Notes: a model not told the origin generated them from the letters alone. Counted from the first letter of the stretch, positions 4,121 through 14,260 are shown. The stretch is 64,000 nucleotides of DNA from Candidatus Omnitrophota bacterium (GCA_018812925.1 JAHJCU010000005.1:70957-134956), one strand, 5' to 3'. A program made the numbers and translations.

Positions 4121-5722
4121 ATGAAACAGATGAAGTGGATTAATAGTTTAGGAATATTTTTAGCAATTTTTTTTCTTACAGGATGCGGCGCCGCGCGCAT
4201 AAGAACTTCCGCTGACCGTGAAGTTTATAAAATATTAGAAAAGAAAACAAAAGAAGTTACCTCCGAAAAAATCCCATGGGATATCCGGTTCCAATCAATA
4301 CAAGAAACACCTTCCGAAGATACTCCTTTAACGCTTAAAGATGTTTTGATTATAGCTACAAAAAATAACCGAGATTATCAATCGGCAAAAGAAGACGTTT
4401 ATCTGCAAACATTAGCTTTAATTTCCCAAAGATATAATTATAGCTTGCGGTATGGAATAGACGGGACAGTAACATGGGAAAAAGATAGTTTAGGGACAGA
4501 AAATGTAAATGCAGATTTAAATTTGAATCTTGTAAAATGGTTGGCTCAAGGGGCTCAAATAACATTTAACATTGCCCAGGAGTATCTCAAGTATCTAATC
4601 GGGGATACTGACGGAATTTTTCAGACAGTTGTCGGTTTGGATATTCTGCAACCATTATTTAGAGGTGCCGGCAGGAGTGTTGCTCAAGCAGGTTTAATTC
4701 AGGCAGAAAGAGACGTAATATATCAAATAAGGTCTTTTTTAAGATATCAGCGAGGTTTTTCTGTAACTGTTGCAGATAAATATTTCACTCTACTGGAAGT
4801 AGAGAATAATCTTGAAAACTATTCTAAGAATTATATTTATTTAAAACAGACGAGAGGAAGGATAGAGATGCTTTCTGAAGCCGGTAGAGCTACTCCTATT
4901 GAGGTGGATCAGACAAGGCAGGATGAATATAGAGCGTATCAAAGTTGGCTTTCTGCTAATAATAATTATCAGAAGTTATTAGACGAATTTAAAATATTTT
5001 TAGGTCTTTCTCCTGAAATAAAAATTTCTCTTGAAGCTGAGGGGTTGGAAACATTTTTAGAAGAGGGTATATCCGAAATTAAAGTTGAGCCGCAAGAATC
5101 TGTAAAATTAGCTCTTGAGAAAAGGCTTGATTTAATGACAGCATATGACCAATTGGAAGACAGCAAAAGAGATGTGCACGTTGCCTTAAATGCATTAAGA
5201 ACAAGACTTGACTTAAATCTTGGCGTTGAAAGTAGAACTCCTACAGGAGATAAACCCAGTTGGGAATTTGAGGAGCCAACTTATACCGCAGGATTTAATT
5301 TGGAACTTCCATTAAACAAAGTTCCTGAAAGAAATGCTTATATACAAGCTTTAATTAGTTTTGAAAGAGAAAAAAGGAGTGTTACTCAAACAAGAGATGA
5401 GCTCAAACTTGATATCTTAAATCTCTGTCGAGATTTAGAAGAGTTATATCAGACATATATTATTCAAGACAAAAGCCTTAAACTTGCAAGTAAAAGAGTT
5501 GAAGGAACTGATTTGTTGCTTCAAGCAGGAAGAGCAACTACACGAGATTTGTTGGAAGCTCAAGAATCGTATCTTAACGCAAAGAATTCCTTATCAACGG
5601 CAATTGTAAACTATTTAGTTTCTTATCTGGAATTTTTAAGAGATACTGAAACTTTAGAAATTGATGAGGGTGGAGTATGGAAAGGAGACCTCTATGAAAA
5701 AATCAGTGGGGAAAGAGACTAA
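4121..5722 (+). CDS. TolC-family outer-membrane efflux protein (lipoprotein).
   Basis: Signal plus lipobox 'FLTGCGA'. 533 aa with the two repeated alpha-helical/beta-barrel halves typical of outer-membrane factor proteins. It is the first gene of the efflux operon. Confidence 0.75.
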   Translation: MKQMKWINSLGIFLAIFFLTGCGAARIRTSADREVYKILEKKTKEVTSEKIPWDIRFQSIQETPSEDTPLTLKDVLIIATKNNRDYQSAKEDVYLQTLALISQRYNYSLRYGIDGTVTWEKDSLGTENVNADLNLNLVKWLAQGAQITFNIAQEYLKYLIGDTDGIFQTVVGLDILQPLFRGAGRSVAQAGLIQAERDVIYQIRSFLRYQRGFSVTVADKYFTLLEVENNLENYSKNYIYLKQTRGRIEMLSEAGRATPIEVDQTRQDEYRAYQSWLSANNNYQKLLDEFKIFLGLSPEIKISLEAEGLETFLEEGISEIKVEPQESVKLALEKRLDLMTAYDQLEDSKRDVHVALNALRTRLDLNLGVESRTPTGDKPSWEFEEPTYTAGFNLELPLNKVPERNAYIQALISFEREKRSVTQTRDELKLDILNLCRDLEELYQTYIIQDKSLKLASKRVEGTDLLLQAGRATTRDLLEAQESYLNAKNSLSTAIVNYLVSYLEFLRDTETLEIDEGGVWKGDLYEKISGERD

Positions 5723-7436
5723 ATCTCATATCCGTTCGTTTATTAAGACAGCGCTACAGGGTAAAAATAAATTCTTCTTGGCGGGCGGAATTGTTTTTAT
5801 ATTTCTCTTGCTATTTCTTAACGGTTTTATTCACGGGAAAAAAAGGATAGAAGGACTAATTAGCTATGAAGTAAAAAGACAAGGTCTAGTTATATCTGTT
5901 GTAGAAGGAGGAAATCTCAAGGCACTGCGTTCTCAGAAAATTATTAATGAAGTCCCTGGTCAGCGGAATATTCTAGAGGTAATTGACGAAGGAATACTAA
6001 TCACTGAAAAGGATGTTCAGGACAGCAAAATCCTTATGAAACTTGATTCCAAGGATTTAGATGACCGCGCAGAGGAGTTAAGGATAACTGTAGAGAACAG
6101 TTTGTCGTCTTATACGCAGGCACAGCAAAATCTTGAAATACAGAAAAAACAGAATGACAGCGATATTATACAGGCAGAATTGAACGTCAAGTTTGCGAAG
6201 ATAGATTTAGAAAAATATTTAGGAGAGAAATTAGCTGGTGAGCTTATTATAAATGAGAGTGAGAATATAAACTTTTCAAAGTTGATAGCAAATCCGCAGT
6301 TGGAAGGAGAGGCTCTTAATAAGAAAAGGGAACTTGAGAATAGTATAGACCTTTCAAAAGAAGAAGTCGCTCGGGCGAAAGACAGAGTCCAGTGGAGCGA
6401 AAAATTATCCGAAAAAGAATATATAACAAAAAGTGAATTGGATGCAGACAGATTTTCTTTGCAACAACAAGAGGCCTCTTCAGAGAATTCTAAGTTAGGA
6501 TATCAACTTTTCCTGGATTACGACTTTCCCAAACAAGTGGCGTTACTTCTTTCTAATTATCAGGAATCTCTAAGAGAACTTGATAAAACAAAAGCCAAAT
6601 GTGGATCTGAAATTATTAAAGCAGAATCATATGTTAGAAGTAGCGAAGCAGCTTATTTAGGAATTAAGAATAATCTTAGTGAAGCGGAACAAAATATTGT
6701 CAAATGCACAATCAGGGCAACACAACCAGGGCTCGTTGTCTATGCAACAAGCAGTAACCCTTGGCGTTCACAGAATCCAATTCAACCAGGTACTACCGTG
6801 TACGACAGGCAAGATTTATTGAATCTTCCAGATTTCAGCAGTATGGGAGTTGAAGTAAAGATTCATGAATCTTCAATAGAAAAAATAAAGGTTGGGCAAA
6901 AAGTCCTTATAAAAGTAGATGCTTGTAGTGGGAACCAATTTACTGGAGAAGTGAAAAAAGTTGCACCTTTGCCAGACGCTACTTTCAAATGGATGAACCC
7001 TGATTTGAATGTTTATCTCGTTGAAATTTCGCTTGATAAAAATGGGCAGAATTTTGATTGCCTAAAACCGGGGCTGTCTGCAGAAGTAGAAATCATGATT
7101 GAGAAATTAGAAAATGTTTTGGTGGTTCCTTTAGCAGTCATATCACAAAGAGAAGGAAAATCCACCTGTGCTGTTCTTAGAGGAAGTAGGATTGACATTA
7201 GAAAAATCGAACTTGGTAGTAGTAGTGAAGATATGGTAGAAGTAAAAAGTGGATTAAAAGAAAGGGAAATCGTAGTAATATTGTCCGGTGAAATGGGAGA
7301 ACAAGTTAAAAAAACGCCCATGGCTGAAACAGGAAAATTTAAGAGCGAAGAGACAGAGAATATGCCGACAGAACAACCCCCAACGACGAATACAACAAGA
7401 CCTGAAAATAGCGGAACAGGTAGACCTAATCGATAA
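5694..7436 (+). CDS. HlyD/MacA-type periplasmic adaptor (membrane fusion protein).
   Basis: N-terminal TM anchor 'FFLAGGIVFIFLLLFL', a long coiled-coil, and a C-terminal beta-barrel region ('VPLAVISQREGKSTCAVL'). A low-complexity Pro/Thr tail is present. The likely start is ATG at 5694 with an AAAGGAG RBS; the ORF caller extends it to 5661. Confidence 0.75.
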   Translation: MKKSVGKETKSHIRSFIKTALQGKNKFFLAGGIVFIFLLLFLNGFIHGKKRIEGLISYEVKRQGLVISVVEGGNLKALRSQKIINEVPGQRNILEVIDEGILITEKDVQDSKILMKLDSKDLDDRAEELRITVENSLSSYTQAQQNLEIQKKQNDSDIIQAELNVKFAKIDLEKYLGEKLAGELIINESENINFSKLIANPQLEGEALNKKRELENSIDLSKEEVARAKDRVQWSEKLSEKEYITKSELDADRFSLQQQEASSENSKLGYQLFLDYDFPKQVALLLSNYQESLRELDKTKAKCGSEIIKAESYVRSSEAAYLGIKNNLSEAEQNIVKCTIRATQPGLVVYATSSNPWRSQNPIQPGTTVYDRQDLLNLPDFSSMGVEVKIHESSIEKIKVGQKVLIKVDACSGNQFTGEVKKVAPLPDATFKWMNPDLNVYLVEISLDKNGQNFDCLKPGLSAEVEIMIEKLENVLVVPLAVISQREGKSTCAVLRGSRIDIRKIELGSSSEDMVEVKSGLKEREIVVILSGEMGEQVKKTPMAETGKFKSEETENMPTEQPPTTNTTRPENSGTGRPNR

Positions 7437-7441
7437 AGACA

Positions 7442-8122
7442 ATGAAGAAGGAAATAATAAACCTTGTCGATATTTGGAAAGTTTACAGACTTGGACCAGT
7501 AGATGTTCCCGTGCTTAAAGGAATTAACCTCTCCATAGAAACAGGCGAACATTTATCAATTATGGGTCCCTCCGGAAGCGGCAAGACAACTATTTTGAAT
7601 ATTCTCGGATGTCTTGATAAACCCACAGAAGGACAATATCTTATGGAAGAAAGAAAGATTTCCACTTTATCAGATGATGAACTCTCTGAAATTCGCAGTC
7701 GGAAAGTTGGTTTCGTTTTCCAGACATTCAACCTCATTCCTCAATTAACCGTATTAGAAAATATAGGCATTCCACTTTTTTATCAGGGAGTTGATGAAAT
7801 TACCATTAAAGAGAAAGCTTTTAAATTAGCAGATATTGTAGGTTTGGGAGAGCGTATTAAACATAGGCCTTCGGAACTTTCAGGAGGTGAGCGCCAAAGA
7901 GTTGCGATTGCCAGAGCTTTAATAAACCAACCCATTTTGATTTTAGCCGATGAACCGACGGGTAATCTCGACAGTGAAACCGGTAAGGAAATCATGGACC
8001 TGCTTATTCAGTTAAATAAAGAAGGCAAAACGCTCGTCGTAATAACTCACGACCCGAAAATAGCAGGTTACTCTCAAAAAGTAGTGCGGCTATTTGATGG
8101 GGAAATCGTAGATGAAAATTAA
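7442..8122 (+). CDS. ABC transporter ATP-binding protein, MacB/LolD type.
   Basis: Walker A 'GPSGSGKTT', signature 'LSGGERQRVAIARAL', Walker B 'ILILADEPT'. 226 aa. Confidence 0.85.
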   Translation: MKKEIINLVDIWKVYRLGPVDVPVLKGINLSIETGEHLSIMGPSGSGKTTILNILGCLDKPTEGQYLMEERKISTLSDDELSEIRSRKVGFVFQTFNLIPQLTVLENIGIPLFYQGVDEITIKEKAFKLADIVGLGERIKHRPSELSGGERQRVAIARALINQPILILADEPTGNLDSETGKEIMDLLIQLNKEGKTLVVITHDPKIAGYSQKVVRLFDGEIVDEN

Positions 8123-9383
8123 TATTCTTCATATTATAAGAATAGTAAAATTTGGGGGGAAGAATCTGTGGCTTCACAAACTTCGTTCTCTCCTTACTAT
8201 GCTGGGAATTGTTTTTGGAGTTGCTTCTGTGATAGCAATGCTTGCAATTGGAGAAGGCGCAAGTTTTGAAGCAAGGGAAAAAATTAAAGAACTTGGAAGC
8301 AATAATATAATTATCCGAAGCGTAAAACCACCAAGCGAAGCTGCAACTCAAATGACTTCTTGGCTTGATGTTTACGGTCTTGCTCCTTCAGATTTCAGAA
8401 AGATTTCGTCAATTCCTTCTATTGAAAATATTGTCCCTACATGGGAAATTAAAGAAGAAATTTGGCGTCTCGCCAAGAATACTCCGGGAAGAGTTGTGGG
8501 TACAACTCCCGATTATGCGGAAACCACCAATATGAAAGTTGAAAATGGTGGAAGATTCATTAATGAAGTCGATATGGATACGAGTAAATCGGTAGTTGTA
8601 ATAGGTTATTCAATAAAGAATATCCTTTTCCTTGGAGTAAATCCTATTGGTGAGAAAATAAAAATAAAGAGTAATTATTTCACCGTTATCGGTGTGGTGA
8701 AGGCGAAAGTATTTTCAAAAGGGACAGGAAGTTTCGAAGCCGAAGATATTAACTTTGATGTTTATCTTCCCTTGAGTACAGCAAGAGCTTATTTTGGAGA
8801 ATTCGACGTTAAAATGCGGACCAGACAGATGAGCTGGGTAAAGTTTCATCGCTTCATAGCGAAAGTTAAGGATACTAATAAAATCATGTCAACTTCAGCA
8901 TTGATAAACCAGATTTTAGAATCAACTCACAAAAATCCGGATTACGAAATCCTTGTCCCCTTAGAATTATTAAGACAGGCGGAACACACAAAAAGAATTT
9001 TTAGTATTGTTCTTGGTTCTATAGCAGCGATTTCATTACTTGTTGGCGGGATTGGAATTATGAATATTATGCTGGCAACGGTTACAGAACGAACCAGGGA
9101 AATTGGCATAAGAAGGGCGCTTGGAGCCAAAAGAAGAGATATTATCTATCAATTTGTTACAGAAGCCGTAATCCTTTCGGCTACGGGAGGATTTATTGGT
9201 GTGGTTATCGGTGTTGTAATTCCAGCAATAGTTTCCAAATTCGCAGACATGGTAACAATAATTACTCTATGGTCGGTATTGTTAGCTTTCCTTATTTCGG
9301 TTGCGGTAGGACTTACTTTTGGTATATATCCCGCTAGAAAAGCTGCGCTCTTAGATCCAATTGAAGCGTTGAGATATGAATAG
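8112..9383 (+). CDS. ABC transporter permease, FtsX/MacB-permease family.
   Basis: 423 aa with an N-terminal TM, a large periplasmic domain and a C-terminal FtsX-like 3-TM bundle ('IGIMNIMLATVTERTREIGIRRALGA'). Its start overlaps the ATPase stop. Confidence 0.8.
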   Translation: MKINILHIIRIVKFGGKNLWLHKLRSLLTMLGIVFGVASVIAMLAIGEGASFEAREKIKELGSNNIIIRSVKPPSEAATQMTSWLDVYGLAPSDFRKISSIPSIENIVPTWEIKEEIWRLAKNTPGRVVGTTPDYAETTNMKVENGGRFINEVDMDTSKSVVVIGYSIKNILFLGVNPIGEKIKIKSNYFTVIGVVKAKVFSKGTGSFEAEDINFDVYLPLSTARAYFGEFDVKMRTRQMSWVKFHRFIAKVKDTNKIMSTSALINQILESTHKNPDYEILVPLELLRQAEHTKRIFSIVLGSIAAISLLVGGIGIMNIMLATVTERTREIGIRRALGAKRRDIIYQFVTEAVILSATGGFIGVVIGVVIPAIVSKFADMVTIITLWSVLLAFLISVAVGLTFGIYPARKAALLDPIEALRYE

Positions 9384-10135: not shown

Positions 10136-10243
10136 TTTTTCTCCTAAAACAGCAGGGCAATATACCATTTCAACTTCATTTTAGTCAAATTCTGCCACGA
10201 AATTGACTCATTTTAAAAAACCGCTTATAATGCCAAGTCATTC

Positions 10244-10317
10244 GGGCCATTAGCTCAATTTGGCAGAGCAGTGGACTCTTAATCCATTTGTTGCAGGTTC
10301 AAGTCCTGCATGGCCCA
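10244..10317 (+). tRNA. tRNA-Lys (anticodon CTT).
   Basis: Cloverleaf folded by hand. Acceptor GGGCCAT/ATGGCCC, D-stem GCTC/GAGC, anticodon stem GTGGA/TCCAT with loop CTCTTAA (anticodon CTT), T-arm GCAGG-TTCAAGT-CCTGC, discriminator A. Confidence 0.85.
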
Positions 10318-10532
10318 CTAAACTAAGAAAATGATACTTGATGCTAGATTCTTGATACTAGTGGAAACAAGTAATCAGACTAAAACCCAATAAAAGCGGA
10401 GAAAAACTAATTCTATAAAGATTAAAAGTATCTAGACAAAACAAGTTTTGTAGTTACCCAACACCTATTTCAGAGAGAAATCCTACCAATTTATTTGTGC
10501 ATAAATATTTTTAAAGTAAGACAAAAAAGCAC

Positions 10533-10561
10533 TTGACATACTTTTTATAGTATAGTATACT
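10533..10561 (+). promoter_or_regulatory. Sigma70-like promoter with an overlapping palindromic operator upstream of the antitoxin gene.
   Basis: TTGACA (10533-10538), a 17-nt spacer, then TATACT (10556-10561). The palindrome AGTATAG/TATACT overlaps the -10. An AAGGAGG RBS lies 8 nt before ATG 10586. Confidence 0.45.
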
Positions 10562-10585
10562 TTCTATCAAAAGGAGGAAATTTAG

Positions 10586-10822
10586 ATGACCACAACAGTT
10601 GTAACCACAAAAGGGCAGATAGTAATACCTTCAAAAATTCGCAATCGGCTAAAAATAAAAAGAGGGACAAAACTTTATATAGAAGAAAACGGCACGGAAC
10701 TAATTCTTAAACCTGTCACGCCCGAATACTTCGGAAGAATAGCCGGAGTTTTATCTACTAAGGGTAAATTGTCAAAAGCGTTATTGGAAGGACGCTCAAA
10801 AGACAAAGGAAGAGAGGGCTAA
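10586..10822 (+). CDS. AbrB/MazE/SpoVT-type antitoxin.
   Basis: 78 aa. 'TKGQIVIPSKIRNRLKIKRGTKLYIEENGTELILKP' is a swapped-hairpin AbrB-type DNA-binding fold. The stop lies 3 nt before the PIN gene start. Confidence 0.7.
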   Translation: MTTTVVTTKGQIVIPSKIRNRLKIKRGTKLYIEENGTELILKPVTPEYFGRIAGVLSTKGKLSKALLEGRSKDKGREG

Positions 10823-10825
10823 ACT

Positions 10826-11224
10826 ATGACGAGCATTCTTGATTCTCACGGACTTTTAGCATTCTTGGAAAAAGAACCCGGATTCGAAAAAGTGGAATCT
10901 CTTTTTGTAAATGCGGTTGCAAAAGACAAAGACCTGCTGATGACTTCGGTAAATTGGGGAGAAGTTTATTATATAGTTCTCCGTGAATGCGGAGCAGAAA
11001 AAGCGCAGGAAATAGAAAGAGTAATAAAAACCCTGCCTATAGAAATTATTGATGTTGACATAACCCTTGCCAAACAAGCCGCTTATTTCAAAGCCACAAA
11101 GAAGCTCTCCTATGCGGATTGTTTCGCCGCCGCTTTAGCAAAACAACATAAAGGAGAAGTCGTAACGGGTGATAAAGAATTTAAAGCAGTAGAGGATGAG
11201 GTAAGAATTGCATGGATAATTTAA
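10826..11224 (+). CDS. PIN-domain ribonuclease toxin (VapC-like).
   Basis: 132 aa. Begins 'ILDSHGLLAFL', with a PIN acidic residue pattern including a C-terminal 'VTGDKEF'. Paired with the upstream AbrB antitoxin. Confidence 0.7.
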   Translation: MTSILDSHGLLAFLEKEPGFEKVESLFVNAVAKDKDLLMTSVNWGEVYYIVLRECGAEKAQEIERVIKTLPIEIIDVDITLAKQAAYFKATKKLSYADCFAAALAKQHKGEVVTGDKEFKAVEDEVRIAWII

Positions 11225-13566
11225 ATTTATTATTAAAATTAGTAAAAGCACAAGATGAGGAAGAAGTTGGCAATATAATTACTTGCCATCCTGTATTGTC
11301 AAAAGAGGAGAATTGGAAACCACTTGCTGGGGAGCGCTCAAATATCGGTTTTGCTCATGCTCAACAAGCAAGTCCGATTCCCGCTTTAATAGAAAAACCA
11401 GTCAACTCGATAGATGCTCTTTTAACAAAGGAATGTATTCTAAGGGATATCGATCCTGAAGAACAGAAAGCCCCCTCTAGTATTCAAGAAGCTGCTGAAA
11501 AATTTTTCGGTATAGAAAGAGGGGATTTTACTGAAATTACAGACAAGCGATTACGTGAGGTTGCAGAAAATATTCAGATAATCGCTGACGGCACCAGACG
11601 AAACCCAAATATAATAATTTATGATAATGGAGAAGGACAGCATCCATCTAATTTTGAAAAAACTTTTCTGTATCGTTCAAGAGAGAACAAAATCAAAATA
11701 AAATTTGTTCAAGGGAAATTTAATATGGGCGGGACTGGAGCATTACGTTTCTGCGGAGCAAATAAATATCAACTTATATTATCACGCAGACATACTTCGT
11801 TATTAAATGAAAATCTAGGCCTTTATGGATTTACTTTAGTAAGATTTCATAGAGTAACTACTGTGGGTGAATATAAAAGCCAGTGGTATGAATATTGTGT
11901 CGATAAAACTGGGGATGTCTTTTCTTTTTCATCTGAAGAACTAAATTTGGGTCTATTCAGAAGGAAATTCCAATATGGGACTTACATAAAACTTTTCAAT
12001 TACGATTTACCAGATCGTTCCGATATAAGATTGGGACTATGGAGAGCATTCAATCGCTACTTATATTATCCAGCTTTACCGATTCTTTTATATGAAAAGA
12101 GAGATTATAAAGGAGGACATGGGGACCCAACAAAACTGATGCTTGGAAATAAAATGAGAATTATGAAAGACGGAAGGGAGCAAAAAGAGACATCCTTCCC
12201 TTTAGAGATAAATTTTAAGAATTTTAAGTTCCATGGAGAGGTTACAGTTTTTAAAGATGAGGTTGATAAGAATGAATTCGTAGAAAAACTTGCTGTGATA
12301 TTTACAATAAATGGACAAGTACATGATTATTTGGGTAGTTCTTTTATTGCTTCCAAGAACGGCGCTAATTTACCATATTTAAGTAACTCCCTTTTAGTTA
12401 ATATCGATTGCAGTAATATATCGCCATATATTCGCGATGAGTTATTTATGTCTTCTCGAGATAGAAGGGCTGAAACAGAGACGAAACGCGAATTAGACTA
12501 TGAGATAGCAAGGGAATTAAGAGACCTCGATATTTTACGGCAACTTAATGAGAAAAGAAGAGATGAAAAAATTTTCAAAAATCCTAAAGACGAGGACTTT
12601 CTAAAAAGAGTAATGAGCAGGTTAATTAGTAAGAATGAAGAAATTAGTAAACTGTTAGGACTTAATGGAGACATTGCTAGTAATATTATAAAGAAAACGC
12701 TACAAAAGAGAATTGAGAAGCAAGGCGAAATATTTAAACCAAAACGTTATCCTTCTTTTGTAAGATTTAAAAAGATAGCCCCCGGTAATATTAAAATGCT
12801 ACCTCAAAATGGCGAGTGCAAATTGTTCTTAGAAACAGACGTAGAGAACGAATACCTTATAAGACCACGAGACAAAGGAGACTTTAAAATTACCTTTGAA
12901 AAACCCCATTTAGGTGTTGGAGGAGAAGGAAGAGAAAAAGGTTCAGAAGAAGAAGTTTTTGATGTCAATATTGTTGGACCTACTCAAGGAGAAATAAAAC
13001 TAAGAATAAAAACAAAAAAAGAGTTACCAGTAGGCACAACTGTTAATATGAAAATAGAATTGTCTTCACCCGATGGACCTCATGTGTTAACAGCTTTTAT
13101 TAAAATTGATAATCCAATCAAAGAAGCACATGAAAAAGAAATTGAAATTAGAAAAACTTATCAATTGCCAGAAATTATAGATGTATATCGAGAGAAAAAA
13201 CAAGATATTGATACTCCAATTTGGAATAGTAATGATTATAATTGGACTGGAGAAGACATATGTAAAATTTGGCAATCAAGTGGAGAAAATAGTCTTGTTG
13301 ACGCAGTAGCAATAAATATGGATGCTAATTCCCTTCATGACTATATAAGAAAAAGAAAATTAACGGACAAACAAATAGAGAGCACTTCAAGATTATATCG
13401 GGTAGGGATTTATTTAATCTCTTTAATAACATACTTCCAACTTTCTCAACGAGAAGGTATTGAAGACAAAGAAGAATTGGCTTCTTATCTGATGAAGGGT
13501 GTAGGTAAGATTATAATTCATGTCATAATTAATGACGAAATAATTAAAGAGATAGATAAGGAATAA
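11212..13566 (+). CDS. Large GHKL (Bergerat-fold, MutL/MORC/HATPase_c_3-like) ATPase with an uncharacterised ~330-aa C-terminal region.
   Basis: N-box 'IEKPVNSIDALL' (E-x3-N-x2-DA), G1 box 'IIIYDNGEGQ' (DxGxG), G2 box 'GKFNMGGTGALRF', then a MutL-transducer-like 'VIFTINGQVHDY' segment. The start ATG overlaps the PIN stop by 13 nt (ATGGATAATTTAA), indicating translational coupling. Confidence 0.6.
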   Translation: MDNLNLLLKLVKAQDEEEVGNIITCHPVLSKEENWKPLAGERSNIGFAHAQQASPIPALIEKPVNSIDALLTKECILRDIDPEEQKAPSSIQEAAEKFFGIERGDFTEITDKRLREVAENIQIIADGTRRNPNIIIYDNGEGQHPSNFEKTFLYRSRENKIKIKFVQGKFNMGGTGALRFCGANKYQLILSRRHTSLLNENLGLYGFTLVRFHRVTTVGEYKSQWYEYCVDKTGDVFSFSSEELNLGLFRRKFQYGTYIKLFNYDLPDRSDIRLGLWRAFNRYLYYPALPILLYEKRDYKGGHGDPTKLMLGNKMRIMKDGREQKETSFPLEINFKNFKFHGEVTVFKDEVDKNEFVEKLAVIFTINGQVHDYLGSSFIASKNGANLPYLSNSLLVNIDCSNISPYIRDELFMSSRDRRAETETKRELDYEIARELRDLDILRQLNEKRRDEKIFKNPKDEDFLKRVMSRLISKNEEISKLLGLNGDIASNIIKKTLQKRIEKQGEIFKPKRYPSFVRFKKIAPGNIKMLPQNGECKLFLETDVENEYLIRPRDKGDFKITFEKPHLGVGGEGREKGSEEEVFDVNIVGPTQGEIKLRIKTKKELPVGTTVNMKIELSSPDGPHVLTAFIKIDNPIKEAHEKEIEIRKTYQLPEIIDVYREKKQDIDTPIWNSNDYNWTGEDICKIWQSSGENSLVDAVAINMDANSLHDYIRKRKLTDKQIESTSRLYRVGIYLISLITYFQLSQREGIEDKEELASYLMKGVGKIIIHVIINDEIIKEIDKE

Positions 13567-13587
13567 AAGGAGTTGTATCTTGTATTG

Positions 13588-13605
13588 AGCAGGGCAGGCT
13601 GATAC
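13588..13605. repeat. Left arm of a 300-bp-spaced inverted repeat (AGCAGGGCAG-G-CTGATAC).
   Basis: Reverse complement of 13910-13927 with one mismatch. Located 22 nt after the GHKL gene stop. Confidence 0.6.
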
Positions 13606-13682
13606 TTCCTTTTTGCAACTTTCAAGTCTGGTATTTGGGGAAGACAGATAACTGAAGGTTTGTCAGAAAGGAGGTGAAAGCC

Positions 13683-13895
13683 ATGGTTAATTGTAAGAAC
13701 GATGCTCCTGGAATGAGGGGGTATCGTTCTAGGAACCAAAATGGCCTACTGCGTGACAAACGTGATGATACTCATATGGGCACCATTGAAGCGCAGTATG
13801 GTCATGATTTCGGGGTTCGTTCTGATATGCTTTTGGGAAATTACCTAAAGCAAAGAAGAATTGCTTCTCTGAATGATTTAGTTAATGGTAAATAA
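13683..13895 (+). CDS. Small basic hypothetical protein (70 aa) lying between the inverted-repeat arms.
   Basis: AGGAGGTG RBS 7 nt upstream of ATG 13683. The ORF is visibly GC-richer than the flanking DNA. No recognisable motif. Confidence 0.4.
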   Translation: MVNCKNDAPGMRGYRSRNQNGLLRDKRDDTHMGTIEAQYGHDFGVRSDMLLGNYLKQRRIASLNDLVNGK

Positions 13896-13909
13896 CCATA
13901 ACTAAAGGT

Positions 13910-13927
13910 GTATCAGACTGCCCTGCT
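13910..13927. repeat. Right arm of the inverted repeat (GTATCAG-A-CTGCCCTGCT).
   Basis: Pairs with 13588-13605. Confidence 0.6.
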
Positions 13928-14023
13928 GTACAAAACAGCGACTAATCACACAAAAATGTATTTATAAAATAGCGCTCTCTTCCCCTTTTTACATTCTCTA
14001 TTATGTGGTAAAATTTAACACTT

Positions 14024-14107
14024 GCCGAGGTGGCGGAACTGGTAGACGCGCATGGTTGAGGGCCATGTCCCTTTATTGGGATGGGGGTTCAAGTCCCCCC
14101 TTCGGCA
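14024..14107 (+). tRNA. tRNA-Leu (anticodon GAG).
   Basis: Acceptor GCCGAGG/CTTCGGC, anticodon stem CATGG/CCATG with loop TTGAGGG, long variable arm, T-arm GGGGG-TTCAAGT-CCCCC, discriminator A. Confidence 0.85.
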
Positions 14108-14118
14108 CTAATTTTTTT

Positions 14119-14260
14119 GTCATTGCGAGCGACTGAAAAGAGCGCGGCGATCTCATGAGATTGCTTCACTTCGTTCGTCTCTAGAAATCTGCCCTCTGCA
14201 ATTTGAAAAATTGCGAGGACTAAGTCCCTGAAATTCCTGCGAATTTCTCAGGGCAATGAC
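14119..14260 (+). repeat. MITE-like element (family A, full-length copy). It has terminal inverted repeats GTCATTGCGAGCG...GGGCAATGAC and an internal ~66-bp triple-hairpin core.
   Basis: Core GCAATTTGAAAAATTGC-GAGGACTAAGTCCCT-GAAATTCCTGCGAATTTC-TCAGGGC. A homologous full-length copy is at 39241-39393, and core copies are at 35557, 44644, 44800 and 62221. Confidence 0.6.

Follow-up and report, generated by a model that had tools for sequence, protein, structure and literature searches.

An accessory VapBC-GHKL ATPase operon between two tRNA genes of a Candidatus Omnitrophota bacterium as a candidate immune module

Analysis of a 64,000-nucleotide stretch of DNA from a Candidatus Omnitrophota bacterium (the window) drew attention to the interval between a tRNA-Lys and a tRNA-Leu gene, which encodes an AbrB-type antitoxin, a PIN-domain toxin and a 784-aa ATPase (here called the core). 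This arrangement raises the question of whether the three genes form a defence module and which of them is its conserved part. An initial annotation had described the interval as a ~3.7-kb accessory insert bracketed by the two tRNA genes. The boundaries are as follows.

10244..10318, + strand: tRNA-Lys (anticodon CTT; ARAGORN; Rfam, 71 bits), conserved host gene, left insertion boundary
10319..14023, no strand: 3.7-kb insertion; the syntenic relative L096 has a 124-nt spacer in its place
14024..14108, + strand: tRNA-Leu (anticodon GAG), conserved host gene, right insertion boundary; 86.5% identical to the L096 copy

The flanking proteins of the window and L096 share 61 to 86% identity (upstream genes, 70 to 86%; Zn-ribbon gene, 77%; queA, 61%), and in L096 the two tRNA genes are 124 nt apart. 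Positions 10201-10318 are 89% identical to L096; homology stops at 10318 and resumes at 14023, and no similarity to L096 was detected inside 10319-14023. This empty site indicates that the 3.7-kb segment is an insertion, and the interval is accessory, as had been proposed. The search for an integrase between the two tRNA genes found none, in agreement with the initial annotation. No att-like repeat of the tRNA-Lys 3' end was found either, the sole match between tRNA-Lys and tRNA-Leu being the T-arm common to both. The suggestion that tRNA flanking is typical of such modules did not hold, since tRNA flanks are not a feature of the ATPase family.

Examination of the left part of the insertion revealed a compact gene arrangement with the following elements.

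10492..13567, + strand: conserved transferable unit (promoter, AbrB, PIN and GHKL ATPase genes) with contiguous nucleotide homology to the loci L001, L005 and L016
10533..10561, + strand: sigma-70-type promoter, TTGACA-17 nt-TATACT, 11/12 consensus positions
10549-10561, over the -10 element: 13-bp palindrome AGTATA-G-TATACT (AGTATAgTATACT), putative operator
10586..10822, + strand: VapB-type antitoxin with the AbrB/SpoVT (MazE_antitoxin) DNA-binding fold, 78 aa
10826..11224, + strand: VapC-type PIN-domain RNase toxin, 132 aa
11212..13566, + strand: 784-aa GHKL-S5 ATPase (core)

The three genes are co-oriented, with a gap of 3 nt between the AbrB stop and the PIN start and an overlap of 13 nt between the PIN and ATPase reading frames, exactly as first described. 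The AbrB reading frame is preceded by a GGAGG ribosome-binding site 7 nt upstream of its ATG, and the search of the + strand from 10561 to 12040 found no further promoter-like site. Nucleotide homology of the unit extends from ~95 nt 5' of the AbrB ATG to the ATPase stop codon, with identities of 79% to L001, 66% to L005 and 79% to L016 (cut by a contig end). These units occupy different chromosomal contexts and have the same trio geometry; the 13-nt overlap is retained in L001 (core 83% identical) and L005 (core 59%). The promoter is conserved in four homologous loci, and its elements CTTGAC and TATACT are kept in L001, L005 and L020. Outside GTATAC, the palindrome is not conserved among the homologous loci, so that of the strong promoter with a palindromic operator proposed initially, the promoter was corroborated and the operator remains putative. 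These results indicate that the AbrB, PIN and ATPase genes form one operon, in which both the promoter and the junction geometry are conserved.

The assignment of the first two products as an AbrB/MazE-type antitoxin and a PIN toxin was supported by matches of the antitoxin to Pfam PF04014 (1.6e-9) and TIGR01439 AbrB (4.5e-13) and of the toxin to Pfam PF01850 (1.9e-18). AbrB homologs with 47 to 77% identity lie 5' of the PIN gene in L005, L020 and L031. The acidic residues D6, E46, D98 and D116 of the PIN domain are all present and recur in the copies of L020 and L031; judged by its residues, the catalytic motif is intact. Searches retrieved 3,351 PIN homologs, with the source annotation "VapC family toxin". 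More than 120 clusters are at least 73% identical to the window PIN, one of them alone between rlmN and FTHFS, and an 81%-identical copy was found in a stand-alone AbrB-PIN pair. The VapBC lineage of the window is thus an autonomous toxin-antitoxin (TA) system and greatly outnumbers the core.

The MazE_antitoxin and PIN matches were clear, but the Pfam model HATPase_c_3 matched the core only at E=0.0046 (17.4 bits versus a cut-off of 25). The GHKL assignment therefore does not come from Pfam alone: it is established by motifs that are invariant in the family (E61-x3-N65-x2-D68, D138-x-G140-E-G142 and G168...G173-G174), and fold searches agree. On the basis of these motifs and the predicted fold, the 784-aa protein is a GHKL ATPase, as proposed, with intact ATPase motifs. 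The description as MutL/MORC-like was right as to GHKL kinship; the predicted fold is nearest to Hsp90, followed by MORC and MutL. The model predicts N-terminal helices, a Bergerat ATPase domain (~55-270), an S5-like transducer (~275-420) with the conserved basic residues R297, K308, R316 and R416, a helical hairpin (423-481), an all-beta Ig-like region (483-702) and a C-terminal helical bundle (706-784). No recognisable nuclease or DNA-binding domain was found in the core, the C-terminal half of which is beta-sandwich/helical with no invariant His. Engagement of DNA by the core is therefore suggested by its fold relatives and genomic context.

The initial annotation counted three genes in the island. 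These were confirmed, and a fourth, which had been missed, lies 3' of the operon.

13580..13935, + strand: separate cassette with structured RNA, outside the unit common to L001, L005 and L016
13683-13895, + strand: 70-aa ORF with a GGAGG ribosome-binding site, within an inverted repeat

The ORF lies between the arms of an 18-nt inverted repeat (13588-13605/13910-13927) and has 537 homologs with 72 to 87% identity across phyla. Changes at third codon positions dominate, which indicates that it is coding. The cassette transcript is hyper-structured, with a minimum free energy of -142.3 kcal/mol versus -89.4+/-4.9 kcal/mol for shuffles (z=-10.8). A further copy lies 573 nt 3' of the core gene in L185. 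This is a second cassette, unrelated to the VapBC-GHKL unit, and the islet is best explained as a horizontally acquired segment with two independent cassettes.

The census of the core family at E≤1e-30 yielded 975 clusters from at least 514 species. Omnitrophota, Actinobacteria, Cyanobacteria, Ignavibacteria and a Methanomassiliicoccales archaeon have homologs with 47 to 67% identity to the core. No PADLOC model matched any of the three proteins and no NCBIfam model the ATPase; the family is large, widespread and unnamed. Neighbourhoods were compared at ~90 distinct core loci. The slot directly upstream of the core is occupied by a 76-aa helical protein at 19 of the 90, by VapBC of the window type at ~6 loci in three lineages and by a HARE-HTH protein at one. 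Each of the three TA-linked lineages has closer relatives without TA: the cores of the window, L001 and L016 are 83 to 86% identical to one another and 77 to 79% identical to that of the C2-linked L183, the L005 core is 74% identical to that of L185, and the L031 core is 69% identical to that of the C2-linked L047. Three kinds of VapBC/core junction were found (-13, +24 and ~+88 nt), and the divergence of PIN and core is uncoupled (L031: PIN 62%, core 37%; L020: PIN 41%, core 57%). These results indicate that core lineages have exchanged their upstream partners and that the conserved unit is the ATPase, not the AbrB-PIN-ATPase trio, with an exchangeable upstream slot. The trio does recur elsewhere with the same geometry, as expected of the module envisaged initially, but AbrB-PIN is one of several interchangeable partners.

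Defence genes were frequent around the cores. Type II restriction-modification (R-M) genes lie directly 3' of the core in L183 and L184, the latter also with AAA_15/21, AbiEii and TraG, and MNT-HEPN pairs and NYN neighbour the cores of L003 and L008. Among 150 neighbour ORFs, YhcG/PDC-S02 nuclease and MTase_II were found four times each and integrase three times. SspB, SspC or SspD genes lie within 6 kb of 35 of the 90 distinct cores, essentially in one sister clade, whose partners are DGQHR, DUF262 or GIY-YIG proteins; this link also occurs on Ensifer and Hymenobacter plasmids. No ssp genes are present in the 64-kb window, and many close core homologs reside among housekeeping genes. TA, R-M, Abi and phosphorothioation genes thus recur next to core homologs, so that the family is not one never linked to defence. 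The position of core relatives beside DNA-sulfur-modification and restriction genes makes the islet a credible candidate immune module. The observations of the initial annotation were confirmed, its interpretation in part.

We give about an even chance to a reading in which the main operon of the two-cassette islet combines the ATPase, as the conserved engine of a mobile conflict/defence family, with an exchangeable front end encoded directly upstream. For the majority of relatives without Ssp linkage this front end would be the 76-aa helical protein, with HARE-HTH or a different small protein in some; in the window a complete VapBC would take this role. At rest, the AbrB-PIN complex would repress the common promoter and hold PIN inactive, and the overlap between the ATPase start codon and the PIN stop would keep synthesis of the ATPase at a low, fixed ratio. 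Infection or stress would deplete the labile antitoxin and derepress the operon, whereupon PIN would cleave RNA and growth would halt. The level of the ATPase, presumably an ATP-gated dimeric clamp by analogy with Hsp90, MORC and MutL, would then rise, and it may engage foreign DNA via its C-terminal half of beta-sandwich and helices. The ATPase of the sister clade, with DGQHR/DUF262 and GIY-YIG-like nucleases beside SspBCD, is probably the restriction/sensor arm of the phosphorothioate system. Both the repression by AbrB and the function of the module are inferred.

The position of VapBC could also be coincidental. Since this VapBC exists autonomously and in far greater numbers than the core, its upstream position could reflect promiscuous TA insertion: an ordinary selfish VapBC addiction module would have entered before the ATPase gene, perhaps repeatedly, as TA cassettes favour such islets, and the toxin would be functionally independent of an ATPase that acts alone or with unlinked R-M/modification partners elsewhere in the genome. 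Most cores lack VapBC, core relatives at 77% and 61% identity have the 76-aa protein in its place, and an unrelated VapBC near the Ensifer copy points to general TA clustering. However, at least three core lineages have this VapBC directly before the ATPase gene and in its orientation, with three different junctions. Within 6 kb of a core it was found in no other position, it fills the exact slot of the other small partners, and the 13-nt overlap and common promoter are kept down to 59% core identity; we consider such insertion possible but rather unlikely. Less probable still is a circuit in which the GHKL protein senses a phage cue (foreign or single-stranded DNA, or a phage protein) and, by ATP-driven binding, remodelling or sequestration of AbrB, frees PIN to abort infection. 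VapKSC offers a precedent, as its GHKL protein gates VapC through the antitoxin and protects against phage (PMC13373217). The predicted co-transcription and translational coupling of the genes, the repeated capture of VapBC by the family and the Hsp90-family chaperones, remodellers of client proteins, as top structural neighbours are consistent with it. On the other hand, the core is an Hsp90/MORC-type ATPase with an S5 transducer rather than a SpoIIAB-type kinase, it has no STAS domain, the antitoxin is of the AbrB and not the STAS type, most members of the family lack a toxin that could be gated, and the DNA enzymes that accompany the sister clade indicate DNA, not an antitoxin, as client.

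Very little probability was assigned to two further explanations. In mycobacterial HigBA-TAC, a SecB-like chaperone stabilises the antitoxin, and the Hsp90-like core might be a dedicated chaperone of this kind. Against this, the family is overwhelmingly without any TA and occurs with R-M and Ssp genes, the same AbrB-PIN pair is found alone elsewhere and hence needs no chaperone, and the extra beta-sandwich and helical domains are unlike the Hsp90 C-terminal dimerisation domain. It is just as improbable that the core is a merely mobile niche housekeeping or stress ATPase, e.g., a chromatin or nucleoid organiser. Several loci have housekeeping neighbours only, no defence HMM matches the core, viral contigs rarely encode a member of the family (7 matches in 2.9 million), and phage records yielded none; but the phyletic distribution of the family is patchy, the site is empty in the nearest relative, SspBCD genes are in tight linkage with one clade, neighbours frequently include R-M, Abi and TA genes, and six plasmid copies were found, with plasmid loci beside integrases, SIR2 and DUF262.

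Hsp90/HtpG, TRAP1 and GRP94 share only 13 to 17% sequence identity with the core, which has no sequence-level match among PDB chains, and differ from it in C-terminal architecture, genomic context and distribution. Type II VapBC systems with AbrB-type VapB resemble the operon in gene order and spacing, the strong promoter, the palindrome over the -10 element and the four PIN acidic residues; unlike these, the window and ~5 other loci have the ATPase gene in translational coupling with the toxin 3' end under a common promoter. The SspABCD-SspE and SspABCD-SspFGH phosphorothioate defence systems are connected with the family by gene neighbourhood: SspB, SspC and SspD (PADLOC E-values of 1e-93, 0 and 2e-96) are encoded no more than 6 kb from distant cores (33 to 36% identical), which often share an operon with DGQHR (DndB/SspE-N-like), DUF262 and GIY-YIG-like proteins. 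A survey found 83.9% of sspBCD modules to be without a known restriction partner (PMC8092258). The core is distinct from SspE, SspF, SspG and SspH: it is matched by none of the PADLOC Ssp models, SspF carries a Walker A motif, and SspH is of the FtsK type.

Besides VapKSC, the nearest precedents are the prokaryotic MORC/paraMORC GHKL-S5 ATPases of R-M systems (Iyer, Abhiman & Aravind 2008, PMC2292703), among them VcSduA/paraMORC3, a Shedu type I-D protein whose phage defence is ATPase dependent (PMC12137116). Like the core, they have an N-terminal GHKL domain with intact ATP motifs, then an S5-like transducer and a C-terminal extension specific to the family, are sporadic and laterally mobile, and neighbour methylases, restriction enzymes and other nucleases. 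In contrast, none of the 90 cores has the MORC S5 signature motif, and the core lacks the conserved ExxxH (paraMORC2), HxH (paraMORC5), RecB/DUF4263 nuclease (paraMORC3) and TIR (paraMORC4); these comparisons covered paraMORC2 to paraMORC5. Linkage to SspBCD, DGQHR, GIY-YIG or VapBC is not described in PMC2292703.

The initial annotation recognised no described system composed of PIN, AbrB and a GHKL ATPase. PADLOC agreed, but VapKSC (Chambers et al., EMBO J 2026), of similar general composition, has now been described. It consists of the GHKL kinase VapK, the STAS antitoxin VapS and the PIN toxin VapC; its anti-phage activity was shown experimentally, the GHKL protein being the sensor that releases the toxin (PMC13373217). 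Like the operon of the window, VapKSC is a mobile three-gene operon of a GHKL-superfamily protein, a small antitoxin and a VapC/PIN RNase, often with defence genes nearby. VapK, however, is a serine kinase of the SpoIIAB type that has a STAS domain, whereas the core is an Hsp90/MORC-type ATPase without STAS, in which the S5 transducer is followed by Ig-like domains and a helical tail; the window has an AbrB/VapB antitoxin in the order antitoxin-toxin-GHKL rather than K-S-C, its TA is autonomous elsewhere, and its GHKL protein is mostly without TA. The general composition of GHKL protein, antitoxin and VapC is therefore no longer unprecedented, and the parts assembled in this islet differ.

Analysis of the islet between the tRNA-Lys and tRNA-Leu genes returned the gene coordinates and geometry of the initial annotation, and the 3-nt gap and the 13-nt overlap were likewise present in the ORF calls. 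The following features were located in the window:

10244-10318, tRNA-Lys(CTT), called by ARAGORN and Rfam
10533-10561, promoter TTGACA-17-TATACT, near consensus
10549-10561, 13-bp palindrome AGTATAgTATACT, overlapping the -10 element
10586-10822, AbrB/MazE-fold antitoxin, 78 aa (Pfam PF04014, 1.6e-9; TIGR01439, 4.5e-13)
10826-11224, PIN protein, 132 aa (PF01850, 1.9e-18), starting 3 nt past the AbrB stop
11212-13566, core ATPase, 784 aa, its ATG overlapping the PIN gene by 13 nt
13580-13935, second cassette, with inverted repeats at 13588-13605 and 13910-13927
13683-13895, 70-aa ORF, starting 117 nt after the core stop codon; missed in the initial annotation
14024-14108, tRNA-Leu(GAG), called by ARAGORN and Rfam

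The segment between the two tRNA genes is an insertion. Scanning for relatives of the flanking queA gene revealed a 319-kb metagenome contig (L096) in which the genes upstream of the site are 70 to 86% identical to those of the window, the Zn-ribbon gene is 77% identical, and queA is 61% identical. In this contig, the site is empty: tRNA-Lys(CTT) is followed by a 124-nt spacer, tRNA-Leu(GAG), and queA. Nucleotide homology between the window and L096 ends exactly at 10318 and restarts at 14023. The empty site bears out the proposal of an accessory insert bracketed by tRNA-Lys and tRNA-Leu, and the interval is very probably an acquired accessory operon. The GC content of the interval (0.31 to 0.39) is near the flank values and thus gives no compositional sign of foreign origin. 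Rfam analysis of the interval detected nothing beyond the two tRNAs, and the ORF and Pfam check of the interval detected no integrase, in agreement with the initial annotation. That annotation had also suggested looking for an att-like repeat of the tRNA-Lys 3' end; the sole match to the right end was the generic T-arm, which is common to tRNA-Leu, and it was discarded as an att direct repeat. Of the marks of a tRNA-targeting integrative island, the empty site was therefore found by means of L096, and the integrase and att repeat were not.

The window lacks both the GTTAACA-containing tandem repeats and the small hydrophobic ORF that L096 carries in its spacer between tRNA-Leu and queA (7645-8000), which indicates that the tRNA-queA spacer is variable on both sides. 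The stretch after tRNA-Leu in the window (14119-14200; GTCATTGCGAGCGAC...) was considered as a REP-like element and rejected, because it occurs only once in the window and its structure is not unusual (z=-1.0).

The AbrB, PIN, and core ORFs are co-oriented between the two tRNA genes and constitute one operon, with a GGAGG ribosome-binding site preceding the AbrB ATG. Of the strong promoter and overlapping palindromic operator proposed earlier, the promoter stands, its hexamers being kept in three homologous Omnitrophota loci (L001, L016, and L005) and also in an Ignavibacteriaceae locus (L020). The palindrome is not kept in the homologous loci beyond GTATAC, and a conserved operator is not supported. 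Contiguous nucleotide homology with the three Omnitrophota loci begins at window position 10492, some 95 nt upstream of the AbrB ATG, and extends to the core stop codon (13562-13567). The identity of this unit is 79% in L001, 79% in L016, where it is cut by the contig end, and 66% in L005. All three loci have the same order of AbrB (78 aa), PIN (132 aa), and ATPase (about 785 aa), with the 3-nt gap and the 13-nt overlap. The housekeeping flanks differ, consisting of RecR/HAMP and HTH genes in L001 and of MgsA and DUF5981/NifU in L005. Because the shared unit lies in unlike contexts and tRNA genes are generally not adjacent to it, the three genes and their promoter move together, and the tRNA site is incidental. 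tRNA flanking was accordingly rejected as a family trait.

The initial annotation had counted three genes in the interval. The fourth, the 70-aa ORF, was recognized as a gene from its homologs and codon pattern. It has 537 homologs of 67 to 72 aa and 72 to 87% identity, none of them annotated, in Omnitrophota, Patescibacteria, Bacilli, and Bacteroidota. Comparison of the window copy with that of another locus (L189) revealed 11, 9, and 41 substitutions at the first, second, and third codon positions, respectively; this concentration at third positions indicates a coding gene. The ORF is enclosed by an 18-nt inverted repeat (17 of 18 positions complementary) located 78 nt upstream and 49 nt downstream. 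The predicted fold of the 356-nt cassette has an energy of -142.3 kcal/mol, compared to -89.4+/-4.9 kcal/mol for shuffled sequences (z=-10.8), with a closing 5'-3' stem around the ORF and an anti-SD/SD hairpin. Three other cassette copies are also hyper-structured (z of -6.3 to -7.5), and their flanking stems have different but compensating, covarying sequences. The cassette lies outside the unit common to L001, L005, and L016. L185 has a copy with 70% identity 573 nt downstream of its core gene, and in L187 a copy is adjacent to a type I restriction-modification (R-M) system. The 70-aa protein is hydrophilic and gave no fold, sequence, or family match. In its architecture, the cassette mRNA is similar to the transcripts of type I toxins that are translationally gated. 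The cassette may encode a translation-gated small toxin or regulator, or it may be a cassette of about 340 bp with terminal inverted repeats.

The 784-aa core protein had been described as a GHKL ATPase, and this assignment was confirmed by both motif and fold analysis. Pfam analysis detected only a subthreshold match to HATPase_c_3 (E=0.0046). In an alignment of 64 homologs with 41 to 83% identity, the N-box residues E61, N65, and D68 and the G1 residues D138, G140, E141, and G142 are invariant. In the G2 box, G168 and G173 are invariant and G174 is nearly so. The core thus has the superfamily marks of an ExxxNxxD N-box, a DxGxG G1 box, and a glycine-rich G2 box. Invariant basic residues (R297, K308, R316, and R416) are found in the domain after the ATPase. 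An AlphaFold2 model (pLDDT 81.8, pTM 0.70) was compared with solved structures by Foldseek and matched Hsp90/HtpG, TRAP1, MORC3, GyrB, and MutL with E-values of 9e-9 to 2e-4. These alignments reach about 320 residues and cover the ATPase and the S5-like middle domain, that is, the Bergerat alpha/beta sandwich followed by an S5-like transducer, as in the Hsp90/MutL/MORC/topo II subgroup. The earlier label of MutL/MORC-like is only approximately right, since MORC3 and MutL are among the matches but Hsp90 is the nearest fold. Residues 483 to 702 are predicted to be all-beta and residues 706 to 784 all-alpha. No nuclease-like alpha/beta domain was detected in the core, and no histidine is invariant in the family, the best His column being at most 69% conserved. 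A sequence-level profile search of PDB chains gave no meaningful match, and neither did NCBIfam or PHROGs. Judged by residue conservation, the catalytic motifs of both the core and the PIN protein are intact; in the PIN protein, the window, L020, and L031 copies all keep the acidic residues D6, E46, D98, and D116.

Searching for core homologs revealed a large family. A word-indexed search retrieved at least 1898 homologs, all labeled "hypothetical." An exhaustive profile search against representatives of clusters at 50% identity retrieved 975 representatives at E<=1e-30, a number that rises to 1882 at E<=1e-10; almost all of them have 750 to 830 aa and match from end to end. In a scan that took a single genome for each species, 514 candidate stretches were confirmed to encode a core relative; these span Omnitrophota, Bacteroidota, Poribacteria, Nitrospirota, Chloroflexota, Patescibacteria, Bacillota, Pseudomonadota, and archaea. 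Cultured hosts include Ensifer, Devosia, Hymenobacter, Aquimarina, and Tenacibaculum. Six copies are plasmid-borne in cultured strains, among them Ensifer adhaerens, Devosia neptuniae, and Hymenobacter, and PGAP labels them "hypothetical protein." Viral carriage is rare, with seven weak matches in 2.9 million IMG/VR contigs (one is on a contig of 597 kb) and no core in the INPHARED phage records. The HMMs of PADLOC-DB v2.0.0 matched none of the four window proteins and neither of two distant cores, and NCBIfam models likewise missed even distant core members. No current annotation tool recognizes the family.

Gene neighborhoods were surveyed around 90 distinct full-length cores, with genes in the fetched loci called by a simple longest-ORF procedure; the sample of 80 genome loci consists of those that scored best among the 514 confirmed stretches. 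SspB, SspC, or SspD is encoded within 6 kb of 35 of the 90 cores (PADLOC E-values of representative neighbors, 1e-93, 0, and 2e-96, respectively). These cores form essentially one large clade in a neighbor-joining tree computed without support values, in which key placements are backed by pairwise identities. One core clade is thus linked to the phosphorothioation genes sspBCD; this adjacency was found only for a distant clade, and the 64-kb window has no ssp genes. Ssp or R-M partners may lie in other parts of this genome, beyond these 64 kb. A DGQHR/DndB-like protein (TIGR03187, 1e-28), usually together with a GIY-YIG-like protein, is present in 16 of the 35 loci, and a DUF262/GmrSD_N protein is present in 9. 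The clade is represented in L051 to L095, for instance from Aquimarina longa (L058) and Poribacteria (L067), and its cores often share an operon with the GIY-YIG-like protein and the DGQHR/DndB-like or DUF262 protein. RefSeq neighbors of the plasmid cores of Ensifer adhaerens (pC; L192 6995-9412) and Hymenobacter (L193 6962-9430) include a PAPS-reductase family protein, DUF4007, DUF262, SIR2, and an integrase. This linkage makes the family a candidate partner, so far undescribed, for restriction or sensing in orphan SspBCD systems; 83.9% of SspBCD systems have been reported as orphans (PMC8092258).

The Ensifer locus also encodes, between SspD and the core (4369-6699, minus strand), a 775-aa "sensor histidine kinase" with an N-terminal GHKL N-box, which is a second GHKL protein in one Ssp neighborhood and has no sequence relationship to the core. 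Neither this protein nor the VapC near the Ensifer core copy is related to the window proteins.

In the other clades, the commonest partner is C2, a basic helical protein encoded directly upstream of the core in 19 of the 90 loci. It has about 76 aa, ranging from about 72 to 82 aa, and the motif ERFKR-x5-RT-x10-GNCSNR-xxY-Y, lies 0 to 45 nt before the core (e.g., L008 7729-7959, L017 5761-5988, L183 373-621, and L184 5768-5989, besides about 15 other loci), and gave no Pfam, NCBIfam, or PADLOC match. C2 fills the same slot as AbrB-PIN, which precedes the core in the window, L001, L016, L005, L031, and L020. Recurrent linkage of the core to PIN/AbrB pairs, a check proposed earlier, is thus seen in six loci, and C2 is the commoner partner. 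Single cases of a HARE-HTH protein, a 195-aa protein, and a 350-aa protein were also found in this position. In L020, the core gene (5989-8334) is broken into two pieces, an N-terminal fragment of 50 aa and an ORF of 628 aa, downstream of an intact AbrB-PIN pair, representing either a pseudogene or an assembly frameshift. Two C2-linked cores, 77% (L183) and 61% (L184) identical to the window core, are directly followed by a type II R-M pair, N6_N4_Mtase and MvaI_BcnI (L183 4873-6581; L184 8571-10313). The C2-core-methyltransferase-endonuclease block may itself be a conserved unit. One of these two loci also carries an AAA_15/21 ATPase, AbiEii, and a TraG coupling protein, and other core loci carry MNT-HEPN pairs, NYN, and AbiEii. 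The neighbors up to two genes away from the closer cores, 150 ORFs in total, include YhcG/PDC-S02 nucleases (4), type II methyltransferases (4), PIN proteins (4), and integrases (3) as recurrent families, and housekeeping genes are also frequent among them. We lean toward a conflict or defense role for the core family.

The window pair has the marks of VapBC, namely, an antitoxin-first bicistron with a 3-nt gap, an AbrB/VapB antitoxin, and a PIN toxin with the four conserved acidic residues. This toxin-antitoxin (TA) pair is a self-sufficient VapBC that sometimes fills the front-end slot, as seen from its abundance and from a stand-alone copy: the VapC lineage of the window has 3351 homologs, with more than 120 clusters at 73% identity or above, compared to about 5 for the core, and an AbrB-PIN pair with 81% identity stands alone between rlmN and FTHFS. 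Both findings count against a real link. In favor of one, the VapBC lineage was never found elsewhere within 6 kb of a core in the 90-core survey.

Also in favor of a link, the TA-linked cores fall by pairwise identity into three lineages, and in each of them a closer relative lacks the TA pair. The window, L001, and L016 cores are 83 to 86% identical to one another and 77 to 79% identical to the C2-linked L183 core, the L005 core is 74% identical to that of L185, and the L031 core is 69% identical to that of the C2-linked L047. The PIN/core junction takes three values (-13, +24, and about +88 nt), and divergence of the two proteins is uncoupled, the PIN protein being 62% and the core 37% identical in L031 and the values being 41% and 57% in L020. 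The three lineages, the differing junctions, and the uncoupled divergence indicate that cassettes were repeatedly captured or exchanged at a single slot; the core is conserved, and its front end is exchangeable. Functional coupling of VapBC and the core is plausible, but coupling that goes beyond co-expression seems to us somewhat doubtful. Even if the ATPase and the TA pair are independent, the locus records the integrase-free assembly of small defense-type islets between tRNA genes.

In the proposed mechanism, the AbrB-PIN complex would autorepress the promoter and keep the RNase inactive, and the ATPase would be cotranslated at a fixed ratio. Infection or stress would lead to loss of the antitoxin, whereupon the operon would be derepressed, the PIN protein freed, and the ATPase level raised. 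The ATPase would act as an ATP-gated dimeric clamp on foreign DNA, a proposal based on the analogy with Hsp90, MORC, and MutL and on the DNA-enzyme partners of the sister clade. It is rather unlikely that the core defines a new family of ATP-driven immune clamps that, next to SspBCD, serve many orphan phosphorothioation systems as a restriction or sensor arm together with DGQHR/DUF262 and GIY-YIG nucleases and, in genomes without Ssp, this one among them, are rewired to other front ends, including VapBC. Were the clamp reading true, the window operon would couple the sensing of foreign DNA to an RNase-based abortive response. If the family is an immune engine, a widespread module (at least 514 species and about 975 clusters) would be added to the defense catalogue, SspBCD systems would gain a concrete candidate restriction partner, and the window operon would amount to a natural experiment on how such modules are rewired, with a TA pair in place of DNA nucleases.

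Comparison with known systems placed the core nearest, in structure and context, to the paraMORC group, GHKL+S5 ATPases encoded in R-M operons (PMC2292703), one of which, VcSduA/paraMORC3, is a validated Shedu-type defense protein (PMC12137116). The MORC S5 motif GhXhhpXXRhl (PMC2292703) was detected by regular-expression scan in none of the 90 cores, the window protein included. The window core lacks the ExxxH motif (S5) of paraMORC2 and the C-terminal HxH of paraMORC5. No Pfam or PADLOC match was obtained in the core for the PD-(D/E)xK (DUF4263) nuclease of paraMORC3/Shedu type I-D, and the TIR domain of paraMORC4 was found neither in the core by Pfam nor among the neighbors. The core thus lies outside the MORC and paraMORC2 to -5 signatures; paraMORC1 is described as having a family-specific C-terminal extension and an association with MORC or HNH operons (PMC2292703). 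Identity with SspFGH was rejected, given the Walker A motif of SspF and the FtsK-like character of SspH, and SspE is a different protein. No GHKL partner is mentioned in the searchable phosphorothioate-system literature, and no GHKL component is mentioned in the Aravind-lab phosphorothioate reappraisal or in the BREX type 4 paper.

The initial annotation had recognized no described system of the composition found in the window. This agrees with the lack of a PADLOC match, but VapKSC is similar in outline. In VapKSC, a STAS+GHKL kinase senses single-stranded DNA, phosphorylates a STAS antitoxin, and releases VapC, thereby protecting against phage; its hallmarks are the SpoIIAB-like kinase VapK with STAS and the STAS antitoxin VapS with a conserved Ser/Thr (PMC13373217). 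The window trio shares this composition in outline, and VapKSC is its nearest functional precedent. The defining features of VapKSC are lacking: Pfam analysis detected no STAS domain in any of the three window proteins, there is no SpoIIAB-type kinase, the GHKL protein being of the Hsp90/MORC type, and the antitoxin is of the AbrB type. Should the clamp reading hold, the window operon would represent a second, independently evolved GHKL-gated VapC system beside VapKSC. If the core family is an immune engine, the coupling of its ATPase to the TA pair in the window would parallel the logic of VapKSC with unrelated parts.
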